From Trueperaceae bacterium (GTDB lineage Bacteria > Deinococcota > Deinococci > Deinococcales > Trueperaceae): 64,000 nucleotides of DNA. The translations under genes were made by a program, and so were the position numbers. Shown in pieces: positions 11,762 through 29,788 of the stretch. The stretch covers positions 544,001-608,000 of the forward strand of contig CBDCDZ010000004.1 in assembly GCA_965215565.1 (NCBI GenBank). The letters run 5' to 3'. The notes below the pieces were generated by a model. The model ran no database searches. It was not told the DNA's origin and was given only the letters and a program-made list of their open reading frames with translations. The number at the start of each line of letters is the position of its first letter. Position 1 is the first letter of the stretch.

Positions 11762-12271
11762 ATGCAACACTACCGGTCCGCCCTGGGTTTCTTTTGCGTC
11801 TGCTGCGTCATTGGGATGTCCCTGAGCGCCGCCTACGCGCAAACACCGCTCGCGGTCACCTTGGAGAGCTATCTCGTGACGGAAGTGACCCTGGAGGACG
11901 GCACCACCGAGGAGCAACTCGTCCCCACCGAGACTGCCGAGCCCGGTCAGGTCTTGGAATATCACCTCACGCTCCAGAACGAGAGCGAGACGGCGCTCTC
12001 GGAGGGCGTCGCGGCGACGGGTCCAGTGCCGGAGCGGACCCAGTACCTCGCCGAGTCCGCGACGGACGGGGCGGGATCTGACCTCACCTTTAGCGCCGAC
12101 GAGGGCGAGAGCTTTAGCGCCGCGCCTACTGTCACCGTGACGGACGAGAACGGCGACGAGCAAGAGGTGGCAGCCGAGCCGGGGCAGTATGACGCCGTGC
12201 GCTGGAAGCTGCTGAGCGGGCTCGAGCCGGGTCAGACGCGCATCTTCGTCTACCGCGTGGAGGTGCTCTAA
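11762..12271 (+). CDS. Small secreted single DUF11-like domain protein (C-terminally incomplete)
   Basis: RBS GAGGAGG, signal peptide ending AYA, PGQVLEYHLTLQN...GPVP...FVYRVEVL*. Confidence 0.8.
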   Translation: MQHYRSALGFFCVCCVIGMSLSAAYAQTPLAVTLESYLVTEVTLEDGTTEEQLVPTETAEPGQVLEYHLTLQNESETALSEGVAATGPVPERTQYLAESATDGAGSDLTFSADEGESFSAAPTVTVTDENGDEQEVAAEPGQYDAVRWKLLSGLEPGQTRIFVYRVEVL

Positions 12272-12361: not shown

Positions 12362-15094
12362 ATGACCCTTGTACGCTCCGTTTTCGCGGTCTTGCTCGCG
12401 CTCGCTTTAGCAGTCGCCTTCGCGCAGCAAACCCCCGCCGGAACCCAGATTCAAAACCAAGCCACCGCCCAGTATGTCGATTCATCGGGCGAAACCCAGA
12501 CCACGAACTCCAACCAAGTCGTGACCATCGTCCAGCAGGTTTACGACGTGGCAATTACACCCGACAGCACCGGCACGCCCGGTGAAACTGATTTCGTGTC
12601 AGGTCAGTCCCAAGACGCCACGCCCGGTAGCACCGTGTACTTCCCGTACACGCTCACGAACGAGGGTAACGGCGCAGACAGCTTCGACTTAACGAGCGAT
12701 GTTGCCGTAGACAGCACGGGCGCTATCGCGGACACGACGCCTATTTTCTACCTTGATGAGAATAACGACGGCAAAGTGCAATCAGGTGAAGACATCGTTA
12801 CCTCTATAGATAACGTCGCTGCAGGCGAGTCCGTCAAGTTCATCATGGCGTACCAGATTCCTACGGACGTTGACACCACCGACGCAACAGCGGACACGGT
12901 GATCGCCAGCCCTATCGGAACGAGCCAGGGTGACACCGAAGCCCCTGTCGCCAGCGACAGCAACAACTACCACCAGACCAACGTTGTGCAGGGCGCAGCT
13001 CTCCGCGCGACGAAGACCGTGGACCAGGCGAACGCCGACCCCGGCGACACGCTTACCTACACTGTGACCGTCACGAATACAGGTTCGGCAGACGCAACCA
13101 ACGTCGTCATCTCCGACGAACTGCCTGGCGGCGTGACTTACGTTTCAGCGACAGCGACCCCTGCCAACACCGTTGACTTTGATGCAGGCACGTCAACCGT
13201 GAGCACGACCTTTGCAACCATCAATTCAGGTCAGGCTGTAGAGCTAGAGATTACGGCAACTGTCAATGACGACACCCTCCCCGGCGACTTAGCGAACACC
13301 GCCACTATCACTTATGACGATGATCAAGGCAACCCCAGAACTCCTGTAGATACCAACACCACGACCACGACGGTGCTACCAGAAGCAGGTGTGGCAGTCG
13401 GTCCGAACGGCGACCCGCTCGACGGGCTAGACGGCGACGACGACACCGCCATCAGCTACACCACGAGCGAGGGCTATACCATCACAGGGGCGGACAACGC
13501 CGACACCCAGGTCTTAGCCGAAGCGAACGCAGGCACCAACGTCAGCTTTATCAACACGGTTCAGAACACCGGAACCGACACCGACACCTTCAACCTCTCG
13601 ACCACGCCCACCCTTCCTGACGGCGCGTCCGTCATCCTGACCCGTCTCGACGGCACACCCCTAACCGACACCGACAACGACGGCACGGTGGACAGCGGAC
13701 CGCTCGCACCGGGTGAAAACTTCAGCTTCATCACCAGAGTTGTTTTACCGTCAAACGTTCCGGCTGAAGGCGACGCGGCTGTTAACGCTGCTGAAGTGAC
13801 CGTGACGGCGACCTCGAGCCTCAACCCAGACGTAGACGACGACACGACCAATGTCATCCAAGACATCGCCGGACCAGGCGTCGATATTGGTAACGATAAC
13901 GGCGACACAGAGGTCGATGGCGACGACACGGCAAGCGACATCGGCGTAAACCAAACCGTCGAGCCAGGCGAGAGTGCCTCGTTCCCGCTAGATATTGTTA
14001 ATACGGGCGGCAGCGACGACAGCTTCGACCTTACGGGTACCGTGGACTTCACCGACAACGAGGGCAACACCGTCACCGTCCCAGTGACCTACTACCCGGA
14101 CACGGACGGCGACGGCGTCTTAGACCCAGACGAGCTTACGGCTGGCCCGATCACCAACACGGGCACGATCGACCCAGGCGAAGAGGTCAGCGTCATCGCA
14201 GTGGTGAACGTTCCCGCAGACGCCGTGCCAACCGATGACCCTTCAACCGTCACGCTGATCGCGGACTCACCAAATTCGGGCGCGCAAGACACCTTCACGA
14301 ACAACACCGTCACCGTAGCCGAAGACGCCACCTTCACCTTCAGCCCCGACCGCAACGGCACAGCGCCAAGCCCCGGTACGGTCATCTACCAGCACACGCT
14401 CGAGAATACGGGCAACGTCAACATCACCGATATCGACTTCTCTGAGGTCTCGAGCGGTAACGACACCGGCTTCACCTACACTTATTCGTATGACGGGACG
14501 ACGTACTACGCCGTAGACGCGCTGCCCACTCTGACGGACGCAGCCGGACCGGGTGTCATCGCACCAGGCGACAACCAGTCCTTCTTCGTACAGGTCAACG
14601 TGCCTGCAGGCGTACCACAGGGCGCGGTCAACGTCGTCGAAGTTACAGCCGCAGCGACCTTCACTGCCGGAACCGCGACTCAGATCGTTACCGACACGAC
14701 TATCGTTGTCGGCGGTGAGGTCAGGGTTGAAAAAGAGTGGAGCTTAGACGGTGCCACCTTCTACCGAGGCGACGGCACCGACACCGATAATCTCCCTGTA
14801 CCCGAAGTCGCGCCAGGTGAGGACATCACCTACCGCCTCACGGTTACGAACATCGGCACGGCGGACGTTACTGAAATCGACGTCTTCGACCCCGTTCCAA
14901 CCTTCACTGACTTCGTTGAAGACTCCACCTCGGGCGGCGACGGCGTGGAATGCTCCACCGACGGCGGCACGGGCTACGGTGCGTGCCCGACGGGTGGCGA
15001 CATTGATACGGACGTCACCACACTCCGCTTCGACATCGCGACCTTAGCGCCTGGTGCGGAAGTCGTTCTCGAGTTCGACGTGCGCGTTCAGTAA
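12362..15094 (+). CDS. Secreted acidic DUF11-repeat protein, candidate major filament subunit
   Basis: RBS GGAGG, signal peptide ending AFA, TKTVDQANADPGDTLTYTVTVTN DUF11 motif, DxDxDG loops, Thr/Asp-rich. Confidence 0.85.
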   Translation: MTLVRSVFAVLLALALAVAFAQQTPAGTQIQNQATAQYVDSSGETQTTNSNQVVTIVQQVYDVAITPDSTGTPGETDFVSGQSQDATPGSTVYFPYTLTNEGNGADSFDLTSDVAVDSTGAIADTTPIFYLDENNDGKVQSGEDIVTSIDNVAAGESVKFIMAYQIPTDVDTTDATADTVIASPIGTSQGDTEAPVASDSNNYHQTNVVQGAALRATKTVDQANADPGDTLTYTVTVTNTGSADATNVVISDELPGGVTYVSATATPANTVDFDAGTSTVSTTFATINSGQAVELEITATVNDDTLPGDLANTATITYDDDQGNPRTPVDTNTTTTTVLPEAGVAVGPNGDPLDGLDGDDDTAISYTTSEGYTITGADNADTQVLAEANAGTNVSFINTVQNTGTDTDTFNLSTTPTLPDGASVILTRLDGTPLTDTDNDGTVDSGPLAPGENFSFITRVVLPSNVPAEGDAAVNAAEVTVTATSSLNPDVDDDTTNVIQDIAGPGVDIGNDNGDTEVDGDDTASDIGVNQTVEPGESASFPLDIVNTGGSDDSFDLTGTVDFTDNEGNTVTVPVTYYPDTDGDGVLDPDELTAGPITNTGTIDPGEEVSVIAVVNVPADAVPTDDPSTVTLIADSPNSGAQDTFTNNTVTVAEDATFTFSPDRNGTAPSPGTVIYQHTLENTGNVNITDIDFSEVSSGNDTGFTYTYSYDGTTYYAVDALPTLTDAAGPGVIAPGDNQSFFVQVNVPAGVPQGAVNVVEVTAAATFTAGTATQIVTDTTIVVGGEVRVEKEWSLDGATFYRGDGTDTDNLPVPEVAPGEDITYRLTVTNIGTADVTEIDVFDPVPTFTDFVEDSTSGGDGVECSTDGGTGYGACPTGGDIDTDVTTLRFDIATLAPGAEVVLEFDVRVQ

Positions 15095-15106: not shown

Positions 15107-15128
15107 TGTGGGAGCTTAGGCTCCCACA
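15107..15128 (+). terminator. Stem-loop after the major subunit gene (terminator or mRNA-stabilising hairpin)
   Basis: TGTGGGAGC-TTAG-GCTCCCACA. Confidence 0.55.
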
Positions 15129-15230
15129 CCCCTTCTTGGAGGGCTGCATAGGGCAGCCCCCACTATCTCACTAACTCTATTTTATGAACCTTATCAATCC
15201 CTTTACGAACCCTCTGGAAAGGCACCCCTT

Positions 15231-18050
15231 ATGACGCGACTATTCATCACTCTGAGCGTGCTGCTGAGCGGCTTGGTGCTTGCCATCACCCCGGCGGGGA
15301 CGGAGATTCGCAACCAGGCGAGCGCGGTCTTGAACGGCGAAACGTACCTCTCTAATGAGGTGAATACAGCGGTGCGTTCTCTCTGTATCCCCGAACTGAC
15401 GCCCAACGGCACACAAACCGCGCCGGGGCAGAGCGTCAGCGTGAGCGCGGGGGGGCGGGCGTACCTGCCCTATACGCTCACCAATGCGGGCAACGACCGC
15501 TTCACCTTCGACCTCTCGGTTGTGCAGGGCGCAGGCGACTGGACGCCCGGTGAGACTACGCTCTACCGCGACGCCAACCGCAACGGACGCTTGGACGCGG
15601 GCGAGACCGCCGCCCCGTCCGTCACGTTGGAGAGTGGCGCGGACGCTGCGCTCATCCTCGAGGTCGTGACGCCTGCGGGGGCGACGGGTGAACGAACCTT
15701 CTCACCCGTCGCGATTTGTGGAGGGACGAACGAAGCGGACGCGGAGAACTACGCGCTCGTACAAGTCGTCGAAGGTCCGGCGTTGCAACTCTTCAAGACG
15801 GTTGGAGGCTCCACCTTTGACCCCGGCGAGACCGTCCGCTTCGAGGTGCGCCTACTGAATAACGGCTCGCAGCCCGCCGAGAATCCCACCTTGACCGACG
15901 ACTTCGGATTCGCTGACTTAGATGGTCTCACCTTTGTGGGCGGTTCCGCAACAGCAACGCAGGGAACCGTTGAGTATTCAGACGGCGCGACCTGGACGCA
16001 GACGGAGCCGGGCACAGTGCGCAGCGTGCGGGTGCAACTCGCCTCTCTCGCCGTCGGTGGAGAGGTTATCCTCAGCTTCGAGATGCGCGTTTCGCCGGAC
16101 GCCGCGCCCGGCGAGCGGCAGAACCGCGCCGTCGCGACCGGACCCGGCGGACCCGCTGAAGTCACGGCGGACTTCACGGTAGGGGCGAGCTACCAGCACT
16201 TCTTGGGACCGGACGGCGACCCGAGAGCGCTTCCCGGCGGCGAAGGCAGCGCCGACGATTTACAGGTCAAAGACCGCTTGATTTACGGGCGCACGAGCTG
16301 TTTCGCACACACGCTAGAGAACGCGAGCACCGTTCAAGACCGCTACGAGATCGCCTTTAGCGGGCTTCCGGCGGGCGTCGCGGCGACGCTCAACACGGTT
16401 GACGGCGAGCCGCTGCCGCGCACCTTAGAACTACAAGCGGGCGAACGCCGCGACTTCAGGCTCTGCTTAACGGCGAGCGACGTCGTCCCGCCTTTCACCG
16501 TCACGCTCACCGCGACCTCACTCGCCACCGGTCAGATGAACCTCACCCGTGACCGCGTCGAAGAGGTCATAGCGGCAGGTCCCGAGCTAGACCTCGTCAA
16601 GAGCGCCGACCCCGTGGGTTCTATCGGCGAAGGCGAGGTGCTCACCTACACCCTCACGGTGACGAACAACCACGACTTCGATTTGAATGACGTGCGTATC
16701 ACTGACACCTTGGAAGGCTTCGAGCGTTCGGATGGACGAGCCGCCGAGATTCCCGCGTCCACGTTTGTCTCTGCCTCGGATGGCGGCGACTACGACGCGG
16801 AGACGCGCACCGTTTCATGGCGCGTGCTGAACCTACCCGCAGGCGAAAGCACCCGCTTCACCGTCCAGGTGCGGATGCCTGAAGACGTACCGGATGACAC
16901 CCTCTTCGTGCTGCGCAACCGTTTTAGCGTCGCGGCGCAGGAGTTGCCTGCGCCCAAAGCCTCCAACGAGGTCACGCACGCTTTCCCGCTCTTGTCGCTC
17001 ACCATCGAGAAGACGGTGGCGGAAGAGGTAGTACGCATCGGTGACACGCTGCGCTACACCGTGACGGTCTCCAACCCGAACGACGTGCCTTTAGACCTCA
17101 CAGTTGTGGACACGCCGCCCGAGCGCACCGCCTACGTAGCAGGAAGCGCGGTGGTGACGAGCGGCGCGAACGAAAAAGCGGTTGAACCCGAAGCGCGCGG
17201 CGACGAGTTGGTGTGGGACTTAACAGGCGACCCCGACTTCCGCTTGGAGCCTAGAGGCGCAGGCGGGCGCGACCGGGTGAGCATCTCTTACGCGCTCACC
17301 GTGCTACCCGGCGCGGAGGGTCCCCTGCAGAACACCGCCTACGCCCTCGGCACCTTTGGCGACGGCGACGGCGCGGTCTCGGGCGTCGTCATCGTGAGCG
17401 ACGAGGTGCAAGTGGACGTCACGTTAGACGAGCGTATCTTGAGCCAGCCCGACGCTCTCCTGAGCGGACGAGTCTACTTAGATGTCAACGAGAACTGCGT
17501 CTACGAGCACGGTCTCGACGTGCCGCTACCCGGCGCGAGGGTGCTCCTGCCGAACGGGTGGCAGACCTTGAGCGACGCAGAGGGCCGCTACACCTTCCGC
17601 GACTTAGAGCCCGGCGCGTGGTCCGTCACACTCGACGCGCGGTCCGCGCCCTTTGCGCCCGTGCCGCATCCCGAAGGCTTGGGGGAGGGCTACCAGCACC
17701 GCGTCGTCTTACAAGGTCTTACAGTGAGCGACTTTCCCTTGGTTGCACCCGCAGGCGCGATTCGCGCTTACCGGCAAACGACACTGCGCTTCGGTCCGCT
17801 CAACGTGGAAAAGCGCCTTATCGCCTTGCCGAGAGAGGACGGAACTGAAGGCGTGCGCGTGGTGCTCACGGTGACGAGCCCCGAACCCCTCCCCGAACTG
17901 GTCATCAGCGACCCCGTGCCCGGCGCGGAGCCGCGCACCTTTACCTTTGAGACTTTCGAGGGCGAAGAAACCCTGACCTACGACCTCGAGACCCCTGGGG
18001 ACGAGCCGCTACCCCTAACCGACCCCAACGCCCGCTGGAGATACCCATGA
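15231..18050 (+). CDS. Secreted DUF11-repeat protein with SdrD-B-like domain
   Basis: Signal peptide, TPAGTEIRNQA, three Lys/Asn DUF11 repeats, GRVYLDVNEN...GARVLL...DAEGRYTF. Confidence 0.85.
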   Translation: MTRLFITLSVLLSGLVLAITPAGTEIRNQASAVLNGETYLSNEVNTAVRSLCIPELTPNGTQTAPGQSVSVSAGGRAYLPYTLTNAGNDRFTFDLSVVQGAGDWTPGETTLYRDANRNGRLDAGETAAPSVTLESGADAALILEVVTPAGATGERTFSPVAICGGTNEADAENYALVQVVEGPALQLFKTVGGSTFDPGETVRFEVRLLNNGSQPAENPTLTDDFGFADLDGLTFVGGSATATQGTVEYSDGATWTQTEPGTVRSVRVQLASLAVGGEVILSFEMRVSPDAAPGERQNRAVATGPGGPAEVTADFTVGASYQHFLGPDGDPRALPGGEGSADDLQVKDRLIYGRTSCFAHTLENASTVQDRYEIAFSGLPAGVAATLNTVDGEPLPRTLELQAGERRDFRLCLTASDVVPPFTVTLTATSLATGQMNLTRDRVEEVIAAGPELDLVKSADPVGSIGEGEVLTYTLTVTNNHDFDLNDVRITDTLEGFERSDGRAAEIPASTFVSASDGGDYDAETRTVSWRVLNLPAGESTRFTVQVRMPEDVPDDTLFVLRNRFSVAAQELPAPKASNEVTHAFPLLSLTIEKTVAEEVVRIGDTLRYTVTVSNPNDVPLDLTVVDTPPERTAYVAGSAVVTSGANEKAVEPEARGDELVWDLTGDPDFRLEPRGAGGRDRVSISYALTVLPGAEGPLQNTAYALGTFGDGDGAVSGVVIVSDEVQVDVTLDERILSQPDALLSGRVYLDVNENCVYEHGLDVPLPGARVLLPNGWQTLSDAEGRYTFRDLEPGAWSVTLDARSAPFAPVPHPEGLGEGYQHRVVLQGLTVSDFPLVAPAGAIRAYRQTTLRFGPLNVEKRLIALPREDGTEGVRVVLTVTSPEPLPELVISDPVPGAEPRTFTFETFEGEETLTYDLETPGDEPLPLTDPNARWRYP

Positions 18051-21000
18051 AGGTCTTATTTATCATTCTGACGCTACTCTCGCCCTTCGCTTTTGCTAAC
18101 GACGACGACACGGTCAAAGGTATCGTCCCCGGCGACGCTCTGGGCTGGGAGATCGAAGAGGTCGTGATGACGCTGTCGCTCGGTCAGGACAGCCCGGTGA
18201 AGCTCGAGATTTATTCCCCCGGCTTCGATCCGGACGACTACCGCGCCGCTTTGGACGGGCGCACCGAGCTGGGCGACGAGAATTACGGCGATCTTCCCCT
18301 AGCAGGTGAATTCGTATTAGAGAGCGGCGACACCCTCGCCCAGGGGCGCTACGAAGCCCAGCCGCACGAGTGGGAGACCCTTTATGAGGGCACCTTAGAG
18401 AAGGGCGCGTACACCCTGCGCAGCCGCTTTACCGGAAGGGGCAAAAACGCCTTTGTGGTGCGCGTGACGACGCCCGACCCGAGCATCAGCTCGCTCCGCT
18501 TCGCCGAAGGCACCGAACTTTTCGACGTGCGCTCTACCGAGTGGGTTCAAGCCTTTGAGGCCAAACTGCCCCGCGCGGGCACGCCCGCGCGTTACGCGCT
18601 CTACGACGGCGACGGCGCAAGCGAGCTAGAAGCGAAAGTCGTCATGGCGGACGGCAGCGAGCGCACCCTGCCCGTCTCGGAAGATTTGGAGTGGCAGGTC
18701 TGGGAATTCACTGAAGCGGGCACGTACACCGTCTACCTCCGTCAACCCGAAAGCGCGTATCAGTATTCCAATACCGTCGCGACGAAGACGCTCTACCCCG
18801 AGCCCGTTGTCGTAGACGTCGTGGACACGGCGGGCACCGCGCTCGGTATTCCCGCCCGCATCACGGGCTACAGCGAACGCACCGTGACGCTGGACGTGCC
18901 GAGCGAGTACCGACTCGTCGAGATTCAAACCGGCGGCGCGAGAGGTGACGGAACGCGAGTCAGCTTCGGCTTTGAAGGCGGACAGGTGCGTTACGTGCTG
19001 GAACAAAGTGCCGAAGCGGAGCCGGAGCCCGTAACGCCGCAGCCTGAGCCGACGCAGCCCGAAGCGCAAGACGCCACCGTGACCTTGACCAGGGACCTCG
19101 ACTTAAAAGAGGTCTTGCCCGGTGAAGTCGTGACCGTTTCTTTGACGGTCAGCCACGACAGCGACTCGCCCGTGACCTACACCTTGGAGGACACGCCGCC
19201 CGAGTGGTTGGAGCCGCTCGAGCCCACCACGTTCGAAGGCACCTTGGCAGCGAATGGTTCCGTTACGCACACCTACGGGGCGTCGGTGCGCTTCGGCGCG
19301 GAGGCGACGGGCGAGTTTACGGCGCGGCTGACCTCGTCTATCGGCGACGCGACTGCCGTAGACACCCTTGCGCGCCACCTGCTTCTCGTCGAAAAGAACG
19401 CCGCGTCTGAGACGGTGTTAGAGGGTCAAGCCACCTCGTTCACCGTGCGCGTGACGAACCCCTTGGGGCGCACCGTCTCCTTCGAGCTGCGCGAGTCGCC
19501 GCAGAGAGGCTTAGGCCTGGAAGGCGAGCCCGTCATCGACGTGACGCTGGGGGCGAACGAGAGCGAGTCCTTCGAGTTCACGGCGACGCCGGGGCGCACC
19601 GGCTCGCTCGATAACCAAGCGTCCGTCTTCATCAACCGGACGCCCGCCGGTTTCCCCGCTGGCGCGAGCTTAAACGTCAAGCCTATCCTCGTGCCCGAGC
19701 GCACCTCCTTAGTGACGCTGCCCTTTAACGTCGAAGCGGAAGGAAGAGTCGCCGAAGTCGAGGAGACAGAGGGCGGCACGCTCCTCATCCGCCACCGCGT
19801 CCCTTCGGATGCAACCTATGAGGTGGGCTCCTCGAGGCTGAACGGAAACCCTACCCCCGAGCCCTTAACGCAAACAGTGGAAGAAAGCGGCGAAGAGGTC
19901 ACCTACCTCTACTGGCAACTCCCCTACCTGACCGAGGGAACCCTGAGCTACGCCCTCGCCCACCAGGAGAGCTTGGACGCCTTGGCGGAGCCCGCTTTAA
20001 CTTTCAAATTCGGCAAGCGCGAGCTTTTCTTAGCGGGCGAGGTGCCCTTTGGAGAGGTGCGGGGTGCGCGAGAGGTCGTCCCTGCTAGGCGCAACGGGCT
20101 CATCCGCGAGCCCTTTCCCGGTACGGTTTACCGCACGACGGACGCGGCGAAAGTCGTTTTGGAGGGTCCCATCACCGAAGAGGTCACGCTCCTCTTAAAC
20201 GGCGTGAGCGTGAATAGCGACGCGCTAGGTAAGCGCGTGATTGACGAACAGAGCGGCGTGCAGCGCCTCGAGTACTACGGCTTGCCCTTAGAGGTGGGCA
20301 GCACCCTCATCGAAGCGACGATGGGCGGCGCACGCGACCAAGTCGAGGTCTTCCGCGCGGGCAACCCGACCTCTTTGGAGATCACCCCGACGATGTTGGA
20401 GGCGGACGGCGTCACCCCCGCCCAGTTCGAGATTCGCGCCCTAGATGAGTTCGGCGTGACGAACGGCTTCGGCGCGGTGAGCGTGCAGACCGATCTGGAA
20501 CCTCTAGACGACGACGCTTTCCCCGCCGAATCCGGCTACCAAGTTCTCTTAGAAGATGGCGTCGCGACCGTTCGCCTAGAACCCGTTCTAACGCCGCAGC
20601 AAACCAACTTACAGGTCCGCTTCAACGACTTGGACACGCGAGCGTCCTTTTACCTGGGCGGTACGGACGAACCCCTTTACCTCTATCAGGGCAGCGTGAG
20701 CGTGAAGCTGAGCCAGGGCGAGTTGAGCACTACGGGCGTGGCGAGAGGGTACGTCGAGACGCCTCTCGGGAACGGCACGCTGCAAGGCGCACTCGACACG
20801 AACGGCGGCGTCGCTGAGCAGGATGACCCTTCAGGGCGCTTTCCCATCACGGGCAGCGGCAACGCCGCGCAGCCCGCGCTACGCTCCGATGACCTCGTCG
20901 CGGTGCGTTATGGCGACGACACCTTTAGCGTCGGCTACTACGCGGACAGCTTGGGCGTGCCGGGTTTAGAAGGTGTAGCCAGTGGTACGGCGTTACAGGG

Positions 21001-22707
21001 CGAAGTGCGTACCGACTTTGTAGGCGGCGAACTCGTCGGCAACGCCTACGCGAGCCTCCTACCCACCGATCAACTGAGCGAGACGATTGTTCCCGACGGC
21101 ACGCGGCGCTACACCTTGAGCGCCGCGCCCATCAGACCCGGCAGCGAGAGCGTGACGGTGCGAACGGGCGCAGAGGCGCGCGTGTTGGAGCGCTTGGAAG
21201 ACTACACCTTAAATGATGTGACGGGCACCCTTACGCTCGCTCAACCTCTTTTCCCGACTGACGTAAGCGGCCTAGAAACCCGCCTCGAGGTCTCCTACGC
21301 ACCTGCTGAGAGCCCCCGTGACACCCTTTCGGCAGGGGGCGGCGTTCAATATTCGTTCGGTGATTGGGTGCTGGGTGCGGGCATCGCTAGCGTGGGCGGT
21401 GTCCAGTTAGGCGCGTACGCGGACTATGTAGGGGCGGGCTCGAGCTTTAGCCTCACCTACCGCTACGACGAGGCGTTGCGCTCGCAGATCGGTCTTTCGG
21501 GCACCCTGACGCAAGGCTCTTTCAACGCGAGCGCGAACATCAGCTACACGGACGCGCTACAGGGACAAGCCCGCGCCGCTTACAGCTTTAGCGAAGGGCA
21601 ACGCGCCGCCCTCGAGCACAGCGCCCGCAGCACCCGCAACCAGACAAACGCCTTGTACGAACTCGATTTGGGCGACTTCACCTTAGGTTTAGGGGCGGGC
21701 TACTTGTGGGAAGCGCAGACCTTTAGCGCCGTCGCCCGCGCTGGGTATAGGACAGGCAACGCCGACTTCCGCCTCACCCACACGCAACCCTTTGGCGATA
21801 CTGCGCCGATCAGCGACTTCCGCGTGAACTACCAGATCGGCGAGAGTTTGGCGGCGGACTTAGGACTCGTCTACACCTGGGGGGGCGAACTCGTCGGGAA
21901 CGTCGCTTTAGTCCAATCTTTAGGGCGCGGCAACCTCTCGGTTTCGTATCAACTCCCCGGCGCAGACGGACGCGGCAACCGCGCCCGCTTCGGGATTGAG
22001 ACGCCCCTACCCCTTAGCGACGCCTGGAGCTTGGATCTCTCCGCGAACATAGATCAAGGGTTTAGTGACGGCACCACCTTGGCGAGCGCGGGTGCGGGCG
22101 TGCGCTACAGCAAGGGACTTCGTGGCTACTGCCTCCTCCGAAGTGAGCTACGACAGCGCGCAGGACTCTCCCTTCAAACTCACCTTTAGGGGGGGCGCAA
22201 CCGGACAGTTGGACCATCAGCAGACCTTATCCTTCGACGCGACGTATAGGCTCATCCCCGAAGCCGAGGGGGAGTTCACGGCGGCGTACGCACTTAGAAG
22301 CAGCTACCTCACCCTCTTGACCTATCACCGCTTAGAGACGGGCGGCGACGAAGGCAGCGAGTTAGAGGGCGAACTCGCCCCGACGCTGCACCCAAACAAA
22401 GGGTGGCAACTGCGCCCCGGCTTCGCCTACCGCATCCCCTTGTGGAACGACCGGAAGAGCACCTTTTTAGCCTCGTTGGGCGGACATTACTACCTTACGG
22501 ACTACGCGGGCGTGGGCGGCTCGGTCTATCACGAGTGGCAGCCTGCGACGAACAGCAGCGCCACCGCCTTTGGCGTCGAGGGCTCGGTGCGCGTGATTGA
22601 CGAGCTGTGGTTGGCGCTCGGGTACACCTTTGAGGGCTTTGACGGGCTCAGTGAAGATACGAAGAGCGGGCTACTTACGCTTTGAACTCTTAGGCGGAGG
22701 TCAGTGA
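18047..22707 (+). CDS. Large secreted protein with Ig/DUF11 domains and a probable C-terminal outer-membrane beta-barrel; frameshifted near 22113 and 22671
   Basis: ORFs 18047-22189 and 22065-22685 join as ...VRYSK/DFVATASSEVSY...; a third frame gives YLRFELLGGGQ* ending at 22707; alternating aromatic/Gly beta strands. Confidence 0.7.
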
Positions 22708-25700
22708 TGCGACCCGTAAACGCCGCTAACACCCGCATCCGCAAGAACGGCGACACCTCTTGTCTCACATAAACGAAAGACCTATTCCCATGACTCCAGA
22801 CCTCTTTTACACGCTTCACCCGGTATTTTAGGTGCGCTCATCCTCTTCGCCTCTCTGCGCCTACCGTCCACGCCGAGGGCAGTAAAGACCTCATCCGCAA
22901 CGGCGGCAACCGCGCCTTTTTAGAGCACCGCACAGGCACGAGCGGCTCCTATCAGACGGCAGGCATTCCGCGCGTCACGGTCATCAGAGTGTATGCTAAC
23001 GCGGGCGAAGTGGTGGCGCTAGGCTCCTCCGCCAACGGTGTCGGGAACGGTACGATCCGCGTGCGTGGGCCGAGCGGGTTCACACCTTTTGCGTGCCCAG
23101 CCCCGGGCACAAACAATACGGGTAAAATTCTTAACCGAGCGCAAGAGGTTGCGGGAGCCAACTATAACGGCGTTAATCCCGGCGGCTATACGCCCTGCAC
23201 CTTTCGTCGCGCTTGAGTACGGGTATCTATGAGGTGGACTTCATCCAACCCGCGACGGCGAACAGCACGAACCCCACAACGCTCGCTGTGAGCGCTAACT
23301 GGCCCGCGCAGGCCAGCGCGGACAACTGGGTCACCGCTTGGGACGTCACAGTCTTCGATGGCAACGTAGCGCAGAGCGGGCGCGTCTTCGCCCGCTACTA
23401 CGCGCTCAACCTCGGGAGCGCCAACGCGAGGGTCAACTTAGACGTCATCGTACAGACTATCGACGGCTACCGCTACGAACTCGAGCAAGACATCGAGCCC
23501 TTCGGCTTCATCTTCTTCGCCAACCGCAAGGGCTTTAGAGATGGGGAGGGCAACGCCATCTACCGCTCGATTCAGCTCAACGACGACGACACGCTTCAGC
23601 CGGGTCAGACCTTTAACGCGCCCGACCAACCCGACGACATCGACAACAACGAAGTGACGCACAAAATCTTTTTGAACGAGCCGGATGGCAGTATGCCAGC
23701 TACCGCCGCCACACCGAGCGGCACCGACACCTGGCTCTACCGCCCCGACGCCAAAGCGCCGCCCATTCCGCAGGACTTCGCCTTTACAGGCGTGGACGGA
23801 ACCCAGGACCAAGCGGGCACGGGCTTGGGGGGTACGTTCTCCTTCGTCAACCCCTTAGACGGCACCGACGACGCCCCTGCGCCCAACGCCTACAACATCA
23901 CGCTCGAGTTCTCGAGCGGCGCAACCAAGCGCGTGCTCGCAGGCACCGCCGACCCCGACGTCACCACCGAAGTCTTCTGGGATGGTCAAGACGGCGACGG
24001 CAACGACGTACCCGCAGGCAGCGGTGACTTCACCGCCACGGTCAGACTCTTCGCGGGTGAGGTTCACTTCCCCTTCCTAGACGTGGAGGACGCGCCCACC
24101 GGGATAAGCATCACGCGCCTCAACACACCTGCAGGCAGCGCCACCACTGGCATCGCCGACCCTGGACGCATCTACTACGATGACAGCATCTTTACGAATG
24201 GGCAGAAAGAGCTTGACGGTATCATCACACCCCCTGCCGCGCACACCTTTACGGGCGACTTCGGCAACCATAGAGGCATTGACACCTGGGTCTACTACCC
24301 GACCTCTGAGCCCGAACAAGCGAGCATCGTCATCCGCGAGGCGGACCTCTCGGTTGCGATGACGGACAACCCCGACCCTATCTTGGCAGGTGGTCCTACC
24401 TCCTACACCTTTACGGTGAGCAACCTTTCAGATGGCTCAGCGGGAACGGTGGACGCCGTGGACGCCGCCGTCACAGACGCCTTTCCAGCCGAGTTGACGA
24501 ACGTACAGTGGCGCTGTGAAATCACGGCGGAGGGCACGTTCGCGAATGAACCCCTAGCGGCGAGTAGCTGCGCGATCAATTCAGGTGCGGGCGACATCAG
24601 CACGACGGTGAACTTGAAGCGCGGCGCAACCGCGACCTTCACCGTCACGGCGACGGTAGCTCAAAACGCGAGCGGCATACTGACGAACACGGCTACCGTA
24701 GGACGAGGAACCGACGCCAGTGACCCTGATGCGAGCAACAACGAAGCGAGCGAAACGACGACGATAGACGCGAACCCAGGCGTCGCGGGAAGCGTCTTCG
24801 ACGACGCAAACGGCGACGGCATATTCGACGCGAGCGAGAGCGGTTTAGCGGGTGTAACGGTGGTGCTCTATGACTCAAATGCAAATAGCTGCCGCGCCGC
24901 TCAAACGAACGCAGCGGGCGACTACGTCTTTACGAACGTCGCGGACGGCTCCTATCAGCTTATCGAAGCGGCGTCCGAAACTGTACCGACCCCAGCGGCA
25001 TGTCCACCCGCCGAAGAGGACCCAGCCGGATACGGCTCGACGACAGCGAACACGTTAAATGTGAATGTGGCGGGCTCGAGCCTCTTCGCGCAGAACTTCG
25101 GCGATACGACTGGTTTTGACTACGGCGACGCCCCCGCGACCTATACCGAGGCTGAAATTGTCGCAAGTGACAACATCTACTTGGGCTCGACGCCACCCGA
25201 TATTGACGCGGGCAACTGGCACGACGGTGTCGATGACAGCCAAAACGCCACCGACGACGACACGAACGACACGCCCTCTGCGTTTACAGCGGGCAGCGGC
25301 GAGGAGGACAGCGTCATCTTCGGTCCTTTGGATTACACGATGGCGGGCGAAACCTTTAGCCAGGACGTGAGCGTCACGAATGACAGCGCCTCTCCCGCTT
25401 ACGTCCGCGGCTGGATAGACTTCGACCGTAACGGCACCTTCGATGCCGACGAGGTCTCAGACGAGGTGACGGTGGCGGCGAACGCAGGCACGACCACAGC
25501 TAACGTGACCTTCAACATTCCCGCGAATAGCGCTAATACCTACGACGGTATCAACCCCGGTCCGAGCTTCGCGCGGGTCATCGTGTCGGACACGCCCAAC
25601 ATTCCCCTCACGGGTCAGGGCGCAGGCGAGGTGGAAGATCTGCGGGTCAACATCGCCGACGTGGACTTCTGCACCTTCGCACCCGGCGAAACCTTTTCAG

Positions 25701-28700
25701 GGTTTGACTTTACCAACGTTACAGGTCTCACAAACGACGCGAGCGGCGCGAGAGACGCGGTTGCCCTGTTCGAAAACGCCGCCGTTGCACCCGACGGAAC
25801 GCCCTTAGACGTGCGGATGACGGTCAACATGCCCTCGGGCAGAATCAATTCGTTCGGTAACGGCACCCTCAACCAAAACGTCGAAGATACCGGAGCCTAT
25901 TTGAGCATCACAGGAGACAGTGACCAGGACTACGCGGCGGAGGTGCGCCTCGAGTTCCTCCTCGCCAACACCTCAGTCCCTTACGCCGTGTCCGGTCAGT
26001 TCTCCACGAATGACATCGACGGAAAGAGCAACCGCACCGAGGCGCTCCTCTTGAATATTGAGAGCTTCGACGGTTTCGCGCTCGGCGACCCGACCACGAT
26101 TCGAGCGCCCTACGTCGAGGGTGACTATACGGCGTTCACAGGCACGGGGGACCGCGACAGCGAGCCAGACAGCGCAGTTGTCTACACCTTTTCGAACCAG
26201 ACCCGCGTGGACCTGATCGTGCGAGGTACCGACATTGTAGGCGAAACAACCGCAGGTTTCGGCATCAATGGACGCCTCGCCAGCCAGCAACTCGGCTCAC
26301 CCGTCTGCAGTTCGATACCGCCGCCCGCCGATTACGGTGACGCACCCGCAAGTTACGGCGACGCGGGACACGCCGTGTCCCAAATGCCCGAGCTTTACCT
26401 AGGCGCGGTAGCCCCCGACGAGGAAAGCCAGCCTCAAAACGCAGCCAATGGCGGCGCAGACGGAACAGGCGACGACGCCAACGGGACGGACGACGAGGAC
26501 GCCTTTGACACGCTACCCCCTCTCGCTACGGACAGCAGCAGCTACACCCTAGAGGTGCCTTTGACAAATCCGAGCAGCGCCGCGACGCTTTACGGCTGGG
26601 TTGACTTCGACGGTGACGGGCGCTTCTCAGCGAGCGAGGCGGCAACCGCTAACGTGGCTGCCGGGGCGAGCACGGCGACGCTCAGTTGGAACAGCGCCAA
26701 CGGCAACGCACCCGCAAACCTCAGTGAGGGTACGACCTTTGCCCGCTTGCGCCTGACGACGGACAGCCTCACGGACGAGGCGAGCACCACCAGCCAGGAC
26801 GAACGCGCCAGCGTCGCCGCGACTGACGGTGAGGGCGAGGACTACCCCGTCGAGGTGCTCGGGCGCGTCTACACCTGCCCTACTGCTAGGGCTGACCTCT
26901 GGTTCGCCAATGACGAATCGGGCAGCGTGAGCGACGCCGAGTTCAACGACGCCCTCGACTTCCTCTACCAAATCTCTGACGAATTTATCTACGACGATGT
27001 AACGGGTGTAAAGGCCGGCGTGACCGCTTGGATTAACCTTGAGAATTCGCTCGAGGTTGTTATGCCCATCACGGAAACTTTCGGTGATCCTGGCGACTCA
27101 GGGTTGATCGGCTCAGGCGGAGTCACTACGGACGGTGACGGACGGGGGCTGCGTGAGCTTTACAGCGCTAGACAAAACCCCTCGGGTCGGGGTACGCGCT
27201 TGGATTACGCCACAAACTACCTCGCTGACCTCATCATCGCCGGCAATGGTCGCAGGGCGGACACCCCACAAGTCGCCGTTATCCTGACAGATGCTAATGA
27301 GGGTCAGTTGACCGTGGCAGATCAAGGGGGCGGCAGCGCCTGGATCGATGAAGCTAACCGCTTGAGAAATGCGGGTCCTGACGGCACGAACATCCTCGTG
27401 ATCGTTACTCAGGAAGCCGCAGCCGCCTATAGCGACCCGGACAGCGAAGCTAAGTCCGTCGTTGACGCCGTTGCAGGCGCGAACGGACTCGTTCTTGTTG
27501 TACCGACCTACGTTGAGGCTGCAGAAGCCACCAATGGGTACGTCCAGCAAACAGTAAACGCGATCTGTGAACTCACCACGCGCGAGCCCACCCCGGAGAT
27601 CGACCTCGAGCTGACCCAAGCTGCGCCAAGCGTAGCCACGCAAGGTGAAAGCGTCACCTTCACCCTGACGTTAGAAAATAAAGGGCCAGACAGCGCCACC
27701 GGGATAGAGGTCACGGACCTCTTACCGAGCGGTCTCACATTCCAGTCAGCCTCCTCTACGAACTACAACGCGAGCACGGGTGTATGGAACGTCGGCGCGT
27801 TGGCGAGCGGTGACAGCGTGGTGCTCGAGATTACAGCCACCGTCGATGAGGGCGTACCTGCGCAGATCATCAACAGCGCCGAAGTCACTGCCGCTGAGCA
27901 GACCGACACGGATTCAACGCCGGACAACCGCGCCGATGCGCCGGATGAGGACGACACAGTCTCCGCTACCCTAGATGTCTACAGTCTCTCCCCTAACGAG
28001 GGCAACATCGTTATCAATGAAGTGCTTTTCGACCAGAGCAGGAGCGGCAACGTGAGCGCCGCAAATAACGACGAGTTCATCGAACTCTATAACGCAGGGG
28101 ACATAACCGTTGACCTCTCCGGCTGGGAACTCATCGACGCTAACCTCATCGCTGGCGACTTCGACGGTCCGAATGGGAATATCAATGGCGCAGAGCCCTA
28201 TACCTTCCCCGCTACCCAGCTTGCGCCGGGCGAATACGCGATTATTTGGATCGGTCAGAGCGCCGCGAGCCGTGACGCGCCGACCGCTGCCTTTCAGACC
28301 TGGTTAGGTAGAAACATAAGGCTTAAAAACAGCGGTGACGACGTGTGGCTCTACGACAACGAAGGGCGCATTGTAGACTACATCGCGTACGGCAACGATA
28401 CGGCGGTGAACACGCCACCCCCCGCCTCGCTAGGACTGTGGGACCCTCAGTACAACGCCAACCTCGACAGCAGCGGCAATAGCAACGGTACGAACGGCAC
28501 CGTTAAGGGTCAGTCCATCAGCCTGACGCCCAATGGCGCAGATAGCAACACGAGCGCCTGCTGGGAGCCTACCGCGAGCGGTGAGGCGGACGGACGCTGC
28601 GCGAGTTATCTACCTACTATCGACAGCGACGCAAGGGAGGATAGCGGCACACAGCTCGTCACCAGCGTTGCTCAAAACAACAACGCCTTCATCTCGGGTA

Positions 28701-29788
28701 CGCTCTTCTACGACGACGGCTTAGAAAATGGAGACGCGAACAATGCTTTTCGGGAGGGCAGTGAACGGGGTGCATTCGGCATCGTCGTTACAGTCACCGA
28801 CGGCGCGGACACCGTGAGCACAACAACGGACGGCGCGGGCAACTACAGTCTTATCGTTCCTGGTTCGTTCAGCAACAAACAACTCACGCTCTCTCATTCA
28901 AGGCAGCCCACGACGGGATACAACGACGGAACAGATGAGGTACTAGCAGCAGTTTACGCAGATGCAGACGCCGCTAGCGTCACCTTCTCCTTCACGGGCA
29001 GCAGCGTCACCTACAACTTCGGCGTCGCGCGTCCCAGCACTCTGCGCCCCGATCAAAACGGACAGGTAGGTCCCGGCAGCGCGATCAGCTACACCCACCT
29101 CTTCACGCCGGGCACGTTGGGTGAGGTCAGCTTGAGCGTTTCAGGAACGTACAGCTATCAGGTCTTCAGAGATGTGGATTGCGACGGCATCGTCCAGCCG
29201 GACGAGCAGGCGGATGTGATCGCCGCAGGGTTTGACGTTGACAATACCTGGCCCCGAACAGAGGCCGGCGCTCTAGCTCCTTGCGCCCTGGAACTGCGTG
29301 TATTCGTCCCCGAAGGTGAAGCGAGCGGACGCATCGACTTGGCGACGCTGAGCGCCAACCTCGCCTACGCCGATAATTCGGCTGTGGTAGACAGCGTCAG
29401 CGTGACGGATGTGACGACAGTAACGACGGGTGGACAGCTCGAGCTAACCAAGCGCGTCGCCAACGTCACGCAAGGCGCGGACTTTGGCACCGTCGGCGAG
29501 GGTGAGCCGGGGGATGTGCTCGAGTACTGCATCAGCTACCGCAACTTAGGCACTGAAACCTTGACGCAAACCCTCTTTAGCGACCCCGTCCCCTTCTTCA
29601 CAACATTTGTAACTGGAGCTTACAACAGTCAAGACATCTTGTGGACCCACAACGGCGCGGAAAAGCCCCTGAGCGCCACCACAAACGACGACGAAGGTGA
29701 ACTGAGTAGCGGCGTCGTGCAGGTTGATATTGGCGAGGTGGCAGCGGGTGAGGCAGGCGAGGTCTGCTACAGAGTACGCATTAGATAG
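22707..29788 (+). CDS. Giant modular adhesin (DUF11, SdrD-B-like, two GEVED-type, vWA, lamin-tail-like, C-terminal incomplete DUF11); 5' end frameshifted, true start uncertain
   Basis: ORF 23213-29788 extends upstream through ORF 22989-23216 to TVHA/EGSKDL and an out-of-frame hydrophobic GILGALILFASL; motifs GEVEDL, GEGEDY, DESGSV, INEVLF...DEFIELYN. Confidence 0.75.

Follow-up and report, generated by a model that had tools for sequence, protein, structure and literature searches.

The gene at 12362-15094, within a 64,000-nucleotide window (the whole stretch of DNA analysed) from a Trueperaceae bacterium, encodes a large protein whose last domain stops short and whose first strands resemble the piece that this domain lacks. 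The question is whether one domain has been divided between the two ends of the chain and, if so, what such chains would build. The reading that we favour, at a probability of about two in three, is a donor-strand, isopeptide-locked surface fibre that is assembled without sortase or usher, with this protein as its repeating unit. The features of the locus are collected in Table 1.

Table 1. Features of the subunit gene and its neighbours; positions are counted from the first nucleotide of the window.
Feature	Position	Strand	Details
Small secreted catcher-like protein, 169 aa from ATG	11762..12271	+	Catcher profile E-value 4.5e-9; neither final hairpin nor catalytic Asp present
Putative major subunit, 910 aa	12362..15094	+	Five complete Ig-like domains between tag and open catcher, after a signal peptide
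Signal peptide, residues 1-21, ends AFA	12362..12424	+	Read by eye
N-terminal donor hairpin (tag), residues 22-58; reactive Asn32 at 12455-12457	12425..12535	+	Conservation; match to internal strands 306-338
Whole internal CLIPPER/DUF11 domain with Lys218, Asp252 and Asn312	12992..13378	+	Fold match to 9IFR; covariation
C-terminal open CLIPPER domain (catcher), residues 783-910	14708..15091	+	Lys and Asp conserved; stops before the Asn strand
Catcher reactive residues	Lys791 14732-14734; Asp843 14888-14890	+	
Stem-loop directly 3′ of the subunit gene	15107..15128	+	9-bp stem, TTAG loop, no U-tract; second stem 15140-15158
Adaptor, 939 aa	15231..18050	+	N-terminal tag with Asn28 (15312-15314), three DUF11 stretches, SdrD_B
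Large protein, probable barrel	18047..22707	+	Gly/aromatic-rich C-terminal half; frame broken near 22116 and 22673
Adhesin-like protein	22791..29788	+	GEVED, SdrD_B, VWA-like, LTD, DUF11; terminal open catcher at about 29435-29785

Subunit architecture and the split domain

The open reading frame starts with ATG, preceded by GGAGG, and its product is called the major subunit here on presumptive grounds, read from the sequence. The signal peptide appears as a helix over residues 5-16 at low pLDDT in the single-chain AlphaFold model. An earlier sequence-only reading had placed the mature N-terminus at TPAG; the motif lies at 12431 as claimed, but the mature chain probably begins two residues earlier, at Q22 (12425). 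The subunit contains only four lysines, two of which are the triad residues Lys791 and Lys218, and the mature chain has a net charge of -130. Its non-DUF11 domains carry the Asp-rich motifs DENNDG (12755-12772), DTDNDG (13667-13684) and DTDGDG (14099-14116), which we take to resemble calcium-binding loops.

Pfam detects two DUF11 stretches in the subunit. The internal one scores 94.6 bits against PF01345 (cut-off 24.6), and its model (residues 209-339) aligns to residues 18-140 of 9IFR with a Z of 13.9 and an rmsd of 2.4 over 121 residues. In the solved CLIPPER/DUF11 domain, as given in the available part of PMC12617251, a bond joins Lys715 to Asn806 and Asp748 is the presumed catalyst. The internal copy likewise carries Lys, Asp and Asn in one contiguous domain (Lys218 in 88/92 loci, Asp252 in 90/92, Asn312 in 89/92).

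The C-terminal copy is built differently. The sequence-only reading held that its DUF11 domain is split, with the last strands at the N-terminus and the rest at the C-terminus, and this is borne out: the catcher with Lys791 and Asp843 ends the chain, the Asn strand is absent from it in 92/92 loci, and the missing hairpin with Asn32 sits at the mature N-terminus. It was also right that the C-terminal domain keeps Lys and Asp while lacking the Asn strand, but the absent piece is a two-strand hairpin and not a single strand. In all 92 loci the catcher ends 1-4 residues past the column where the internal domain continues for another 37-51 residues. Moreover, the resemblance of the N-terminus to the end of the internal repeat, previously seen by eye, is recovered by a profile of residues 306-338, which scores residues 22-62 at 27.6 bits, compared to a maximum of 12.7 bits among shuffles (1998 of 2000 reported); the N-terminus is the second-best match of this internal-strand profile in 117 of 120 proteins. 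Asn32 aligns with Asn312, and Lys791 and Asp843 align with Lys218 and Asp252. The ungapped identity between tag and internal strands (6/34) is out of register and was excluded from the evidence.

Modelled alone, the catcher has a pLDDT of 79.9 and aligns to RrgB 187-307 (reactive Asn318), Cnm 172-282 (Asn291) and 9IFR 19-109 (Asn at about 118, by our reading of its numbering), each alignment ending 9-11 residues before the reactive Asn. Only these end points were used, because the Z values are middling: 7.7-8.4 for CnaA-type domains, which is not above unrelated beta-sandwiches (AP mu subunits, 9.6). Sequence searches of the PDB with the subunit, the catcher profile and two small proteins found no relatives, and a Foldseek search with the whole model matched only generic multi-Ig chains.

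Proposed assembly of the subunit

The favoured reading predicts the following steps. After export and removal of the signal peptide, the N-terminal hairpin with Asn32 would insert into the open CLIPPER domain at the C-terminus of the subunit before it and complete its fold. Asp843 would then catalyse an isopeptide bond between Lys791 and Asn32, with loss of ammonia, locking the chain covalently with no need for a sortase. A catcher-only adhesin would form the tip of the fibre, followed by n subunits, and at the base a tag-only adaptor would connect to the barrel-like protein of the outer membrane. The small catcher without the Asp is probably a reversible holder of tags, and the stem-loop probably keeps the level of the subunit mRNA above that of the downstream genes.

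Gene polarity in the surrounding locus

The arrangement was followed through 101 annotated loci. An alignment of relatives from outside the Deinococcota gave 296 genome matches, of which the best 80 were taken; 20 picked Deinococcota hits and the window itself complete the set. These loci are kin and not independent samples. A full-length subunit is present in 92 of them, with an open catcher end in 92/92, a profile-detected tag near the called start in 89/92 and the catcher Asp kept in 91/92.

The next gene has the opposite polarity. It begins with a tag in 58 of 90 cases by a first profile and in 80 of 90 by a widened profile, which found 22 of 32 next genes outside its seed; among 79 complete cases, a terminal open catcher occurs once, in what is half of a broken subunit gene. 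The adaptor in the window fits this pattern, as no open catcher was detected at its end. In Deinococcota, an adaptor of about 900 residues is followed by a separate barrel-like gene; in other phyla, adaptor and barrel-like parts are fused into one protein of about 1800-2200 residues.

The barrel-like product is probably an outer-membrane beta-barrel, judging from its composition and a weak atlas lead ('outer membrane protein', 0.87), and barrel-like proteins have no usher-type family match in Pfam or NCBIfam. The gene is continuous in two other loci, L101 (1568 aa) and L108 (1847 aa), and the window copy shows 2-base gaps relative to L101. About four small frame-changing indels fall within 22116-23216, where the barrel-like gene finishes and the adhesin gene begins and where the depth of the X1 short reads is lowest; they may be assembly errors or decay. 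With both genes frame-broken, the operon copy in this assembly may be inactive. The adhesin gene in L101 (L101 5560-6441 and 2553-5687), from a genome of the same genus, is also split by a frame change, at another place than in the window copy.

At the other end of the predicted chain, the adhesin-like protein, whose 5′ end is frame-broken near 22860 and 23210, has Lys and Asp in its catcher and no tag. A catcher-only gene of variable length occurs in 55 of 101 loci, many other loci being cut by the locus edge and two of the rows being short fragments; it has Lys and Asp in 55/55 and a tag in 0/55. Sequence and gene polarity thus supply an incomplete Ig fold with an N-terminal donor, an acceptor-only tip and a donor-only base.

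The small upstream protein differs from these catchers. Across the 89 loci with similarity evidence (of 97 candidates), its relatives lack the Asp in 89/89 and the tag in 89/89; it is a candidate reversible chaperone or cap for tags. TTHA1873 (7WRK), the top Foldseek match of the catcher, was considered as the counterpart of the small protein and rejected; its alignment (17-176) is that of a complete domain, and no match was found at the sequence level. In seven Deinococcota loci (L102-L106, L116 and L118), the small gene is not recognisable just upstream of the subunit gene, and it may lie elsewhere in those genomes. A second stand-alone, small, Asp-less catcher-like protein is encoded by a 202-codon frame on the minus strand near 4353425 of contig C4 in genome G000, far from the operon.

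Components of other pilus systems were also sought. In the genome of the window, which is 99.99% complete, the usher family PF00577 has 0 matches (the E. coli control was positive) and the sortase family PF04203 has none; the subunit has no LPxTG sorting signal. No PapD-like periplasmic chaperone family matches within the operon, where the only small secreted protein is DUF11-like, and no TasA-family subunit or SipW peptidase occurs among the 12 proteins scanned in and around it. Between the operon and gyrB stands a lone protein with a CAP12/Pycsar-type TIR effector domain (PF10137; 30169-31050, minus strand).

Natural fusions, the stem-loop and the probable fibre length

A profile search of all representatives plus one follow-up search (13 hits) identified six natural proteins in which a catcher runs directly into a tag, across 11 junctions. 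They form two lineages, with identities of 51-79% and 66-69% within and 39-43% between them. In the first type (P0122, P0123 and P0264), units of tag-D1-D2-D3-D4-D5-catcher repeat head to tail and terminate in a duplicated motif that we label dockerin-like; at 42-51% identity, the units of P0122 and P0123 are too different to be assembly duplicates. In the second type (P0265-P0267), one whole unit is joined to adaptor and barrel-like parts. At 11/11 junctions the triad is restored within one domain, as Lys-Asp-Asn in 9 and Lys-Glu-Asn in 2. For example, P0123 is a single open frame in locus L121, where the gene immediately before it encodes a subunit with an open catcher end and is followed by a stem-loop. 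Since both types are known, the subunit-subunit and subunit-anchor junctions of the fibre model occur as continuous chains. The fusions show that the in-line geometry works, and not that free protein polymerises.

Most long hits of the profile search were set aside as plain DUF11 arrays, concatemers making up 2 of 53 long proteins among the matches listed. Two other very long, DUF11-rich proteins have an open catcher end: P0157 from Cetobacterium ceti (3376 aa), which also starts with a weak tag, and P0126 (1831 aa). Giant subunits with both tag and catcher may therefore exist.

The hairpin that the sequence-only reading had reported after the subunit gene is real, with a perfect stem, and none of 200 shuffles folds as well as its region (z -2.7). 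Further, strong stem-loops (z below -2) come after the subunit gene in 46/92 loci, compared to 9/89, 6/79 and 8/55 for the other three genes, although the first two of these controls are often coding sequence and hence not equivalent. The two stems in the window were discarded as an intrinsic terminator, as they have no U-tract and are absent from the terminator scan list. Their placement fits an mRNA-protecting element that favours the subunit, an arrangement with precedents in papA and fimA. Higher subunit expression is predicted solely from this conserved position.

These observations bear on length. The same lock might instead build a short stalk or a surface mesh, in which the adhesin, one or a few subunits and the anchor make up the whole structure. 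A single subunit already spans six domains, no more than two to three whole units occur in the natural concatemers, and P0265-P0267 place a single unit on the anchor. However, the recurring stem-loop fits an excess of subunit, and subunits that carry both halves set no limit to chain growth; a short structure is thus unlikely, and a long fibre remains the preferred reading.

Conservation of the triad and the predicted inter-chain bond

A total of 310 relatives were found, and the best 120 were aligned with the query; two of them have only one end, hence 120 rows for each end. Named members of this set come from Trueperaceae, Thermus, Meiothermus, Deinococcus, Latescibacterota, Polaromonas and Armatimonadetes. 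Among these best 120 of 310, the split triad is retained almost without exception (Asn32 120/120, Lys791 120/120 and Asp843 119/120) and is more conserved than the internal triad, in which Lys218 is kept in 99/120.

Conservation could also reflect folding. If so, complementation by the donor hairpin would by itself hold a non-covalent polymer together, with Lys, Asp and Asn kept for folding and no bond between chains. Some DUF11 domains do not carry the bond, according to the available text of PMC12617251; in addition, among the best 120 of 310 relatives, Asn51 and Asn830 are equally conserved though outside the triad, and internal Lys218 is lost in 21/120. Against this stands the better conservation of the split triad over the internal one, together with the contrast between the small protein of the same fold, which has lost its Asp in every relative, and the true catchers of the subunits (91/92) and the catcher-only genes (55/55), which keep it. 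A polymer without the bond is accordingly quite improbable, and a covalently locked fibre is still favoured.

Covariation, structure models and possible closure in cis

Covariation was calculated over 300 full-length relatives (effective depth 201). Within the top 50 pairs, 9 join the two parts of the internal domain, including Lys218-Asn312 (rank 9) and Asp252-Asn312 (rank 27); 5 join tag and catcher, 0 join tag and internal domain, and 0 join internal hairpin and catcher. In the top 100, the last three of these counts are 9, 2 and 2. In particular, the tag-catcher pair Gln46-Ile892 mirrors Arg326-Phe284 of the internal domain. The signal is weak, with z at most 5.8 and cross-repeat noise of similar size (Glu296-Ile822, z 5.6), and it does not distinguish cis from trans.

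The single-chain AlphaFold model has a pLDDT of 90.2 and a pTM of 0.56. Its tag is confident (pLDDT 94/88/91 over residues 31-60), and catcher residues 841-890 reach 95-96 versus 60-87 when the catcher is modelled alone, the two models using different alignments; the gain in the full chain, along with the confident tag, suggests that in the model the tag is docked in the catcher of the same chain. Yet a tag that closes on its own catcher to form a covalently cyclised six-domain ring, which would explain the tag's high confidence and would always find its partner at high local concentration, is very doubtful, as it would make the adjoining tag-only and catcher-only partners useless despite their intact reactive residues, in the natural fusions the catcher leads straight into the next unit or the anchor, the inter-domain linkers are short, and the pTM is low.

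Overall, triad conservation, the catcher's end point, the in-line fusions, the polar neighbours and weak covariation support the natural tag/catcher pair that had been proposed from the sequence, and a covalent adduct between the chains of the fibre is predicted.

Significance of the proposed split CLIPPER fibre

A broader proposal, to which we give an even chance, is that the locus represents an undescribed and widespread class of covalent pili in two-membrane bacteria. This class would combine a split CLIPPER tag and catcher, an Asp-less decoy chaperone that covers the donor and not the acceptor, and a giant, unrelated barrel that both exports the fibre and roots it covalently, the concatemers being pre-assembled pieces. 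If the proposal is true, covalent pili extend beyond the Gram-positive bacteria that bear sortases, and Deinococcota, Acidobacteriota, Proteobacteria, Verrucomicrobiota and others build enzyme-free, cross-linked fibres by a new outer-membrane route. A large set of 'DUF11' genes and an uncharacterised barrel family would gain a function, and the loci would be a source of many natural tag/catcher pairs, possibly orthogonal and heat-stable.

The open literature, including the main text of PMC12617251 and few subscription papers, contains no description of a split CLIPPER fibre that we could find. A lead on programmed frameshifting (PMC3711429) was dismissed as it concerns DUF111 and not DUF11, and the available parts of PMC13297417 and PMC12357932 mention DUF11 in unrelated contexts.

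Comparison with known systems

Every ingredient of the proposed fibre has a precedent. The CLIPPER/DUF11 domain (PF01345; PDB 9IFR) has the same fold and the same Lys-Asp-Asn triad, and the subunit's internal domain is a complete member. The CLIPPER domains described in the available part of PMC12617251 are intramolecular and form the stalks of single-chain adhesins, whereas in the present system its parts are divided over the two chain ends and over separate genes; the term 'donor strand' occurs 0 times in that paper's main text.

Chaperone-usher pili (type 1 and P), as outlined in part in PMC9715654 and otherwise from general knowledge, also have an incomplete Ig fold completed by the N-terminal extension of the next subunit, an acceptor-only tip, a donor-only terminator and an outer-membrane barrel in the operon. 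Unlike them, the present system has no usher or chaperone family match, a two-strand donor, a predicted covalent lock and an 890-residue subunit.

SpyTag/SpyCatcher and SnoopTag/Catcher are engineered split isopeptide pairs. The subunit would be a natural counterpart of such protein glues: these pairs are man-made, while the split here is natural and conserved in many phyla. Jo/In from RrgA (PDB 5MKC), a weak match here (Foldseek E-value 0.007), is another engineered pair in which a peptide cut from a cross-linking domain reacts in trans with the remaining catcher.

Two further donor-strand systems differ in their chemistry or their chaperones. According to the accessible text of PMC9715654, the archaeal thread Saci_0406 is likewise a head-to-tail donor-strand filament with an apparent inter-subunit isopeptide bond, but this bond links Asn57 to the N-terminal amine of subunit n+2 in a single-domain archaeal protein with no Lys-Asp-Asn triad. 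The Pam pili of CPR bacteria, as far as the available text of PMC13278184 describes them, share multi-domain subunits, a C-terminal truncated Ig domain, donor-strand exchange and an acceptor-only tip, but they use membrane-anchored PapD-like chaperones and have no outer membrane; their description there nowhere uses the terms 'isopeptide', 'covalent' or 'DUF'.

The closest lock is that of BsaA from Clostridium perfringens, a TasA-family protein with 'donor-strand exchange and lock' (10.1101/2024.11.04.621531, available part). Both systems have a donor Asn and an acceptor Lys with a catalytic acid, which is Asp here and Glu in BsaA, and BsaA is likewise a sortase-free covalent polymer, a property that is predicted from sequence for the present fibre. 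BsaA, as described there, has a single TasA-like domain, an Asn-Glu-Lys triad, a SipW peptidase and a Gram-positive host, whereas the present system has a six-domain CLIPPER subunit, two-membrane bacteria as hosts and its own barrel-like protein, adhesin and small catcher. The locus thus resembles chaperone-usher pili in its polarity and BsaA in its predicted lock, and it is a member of neither family.
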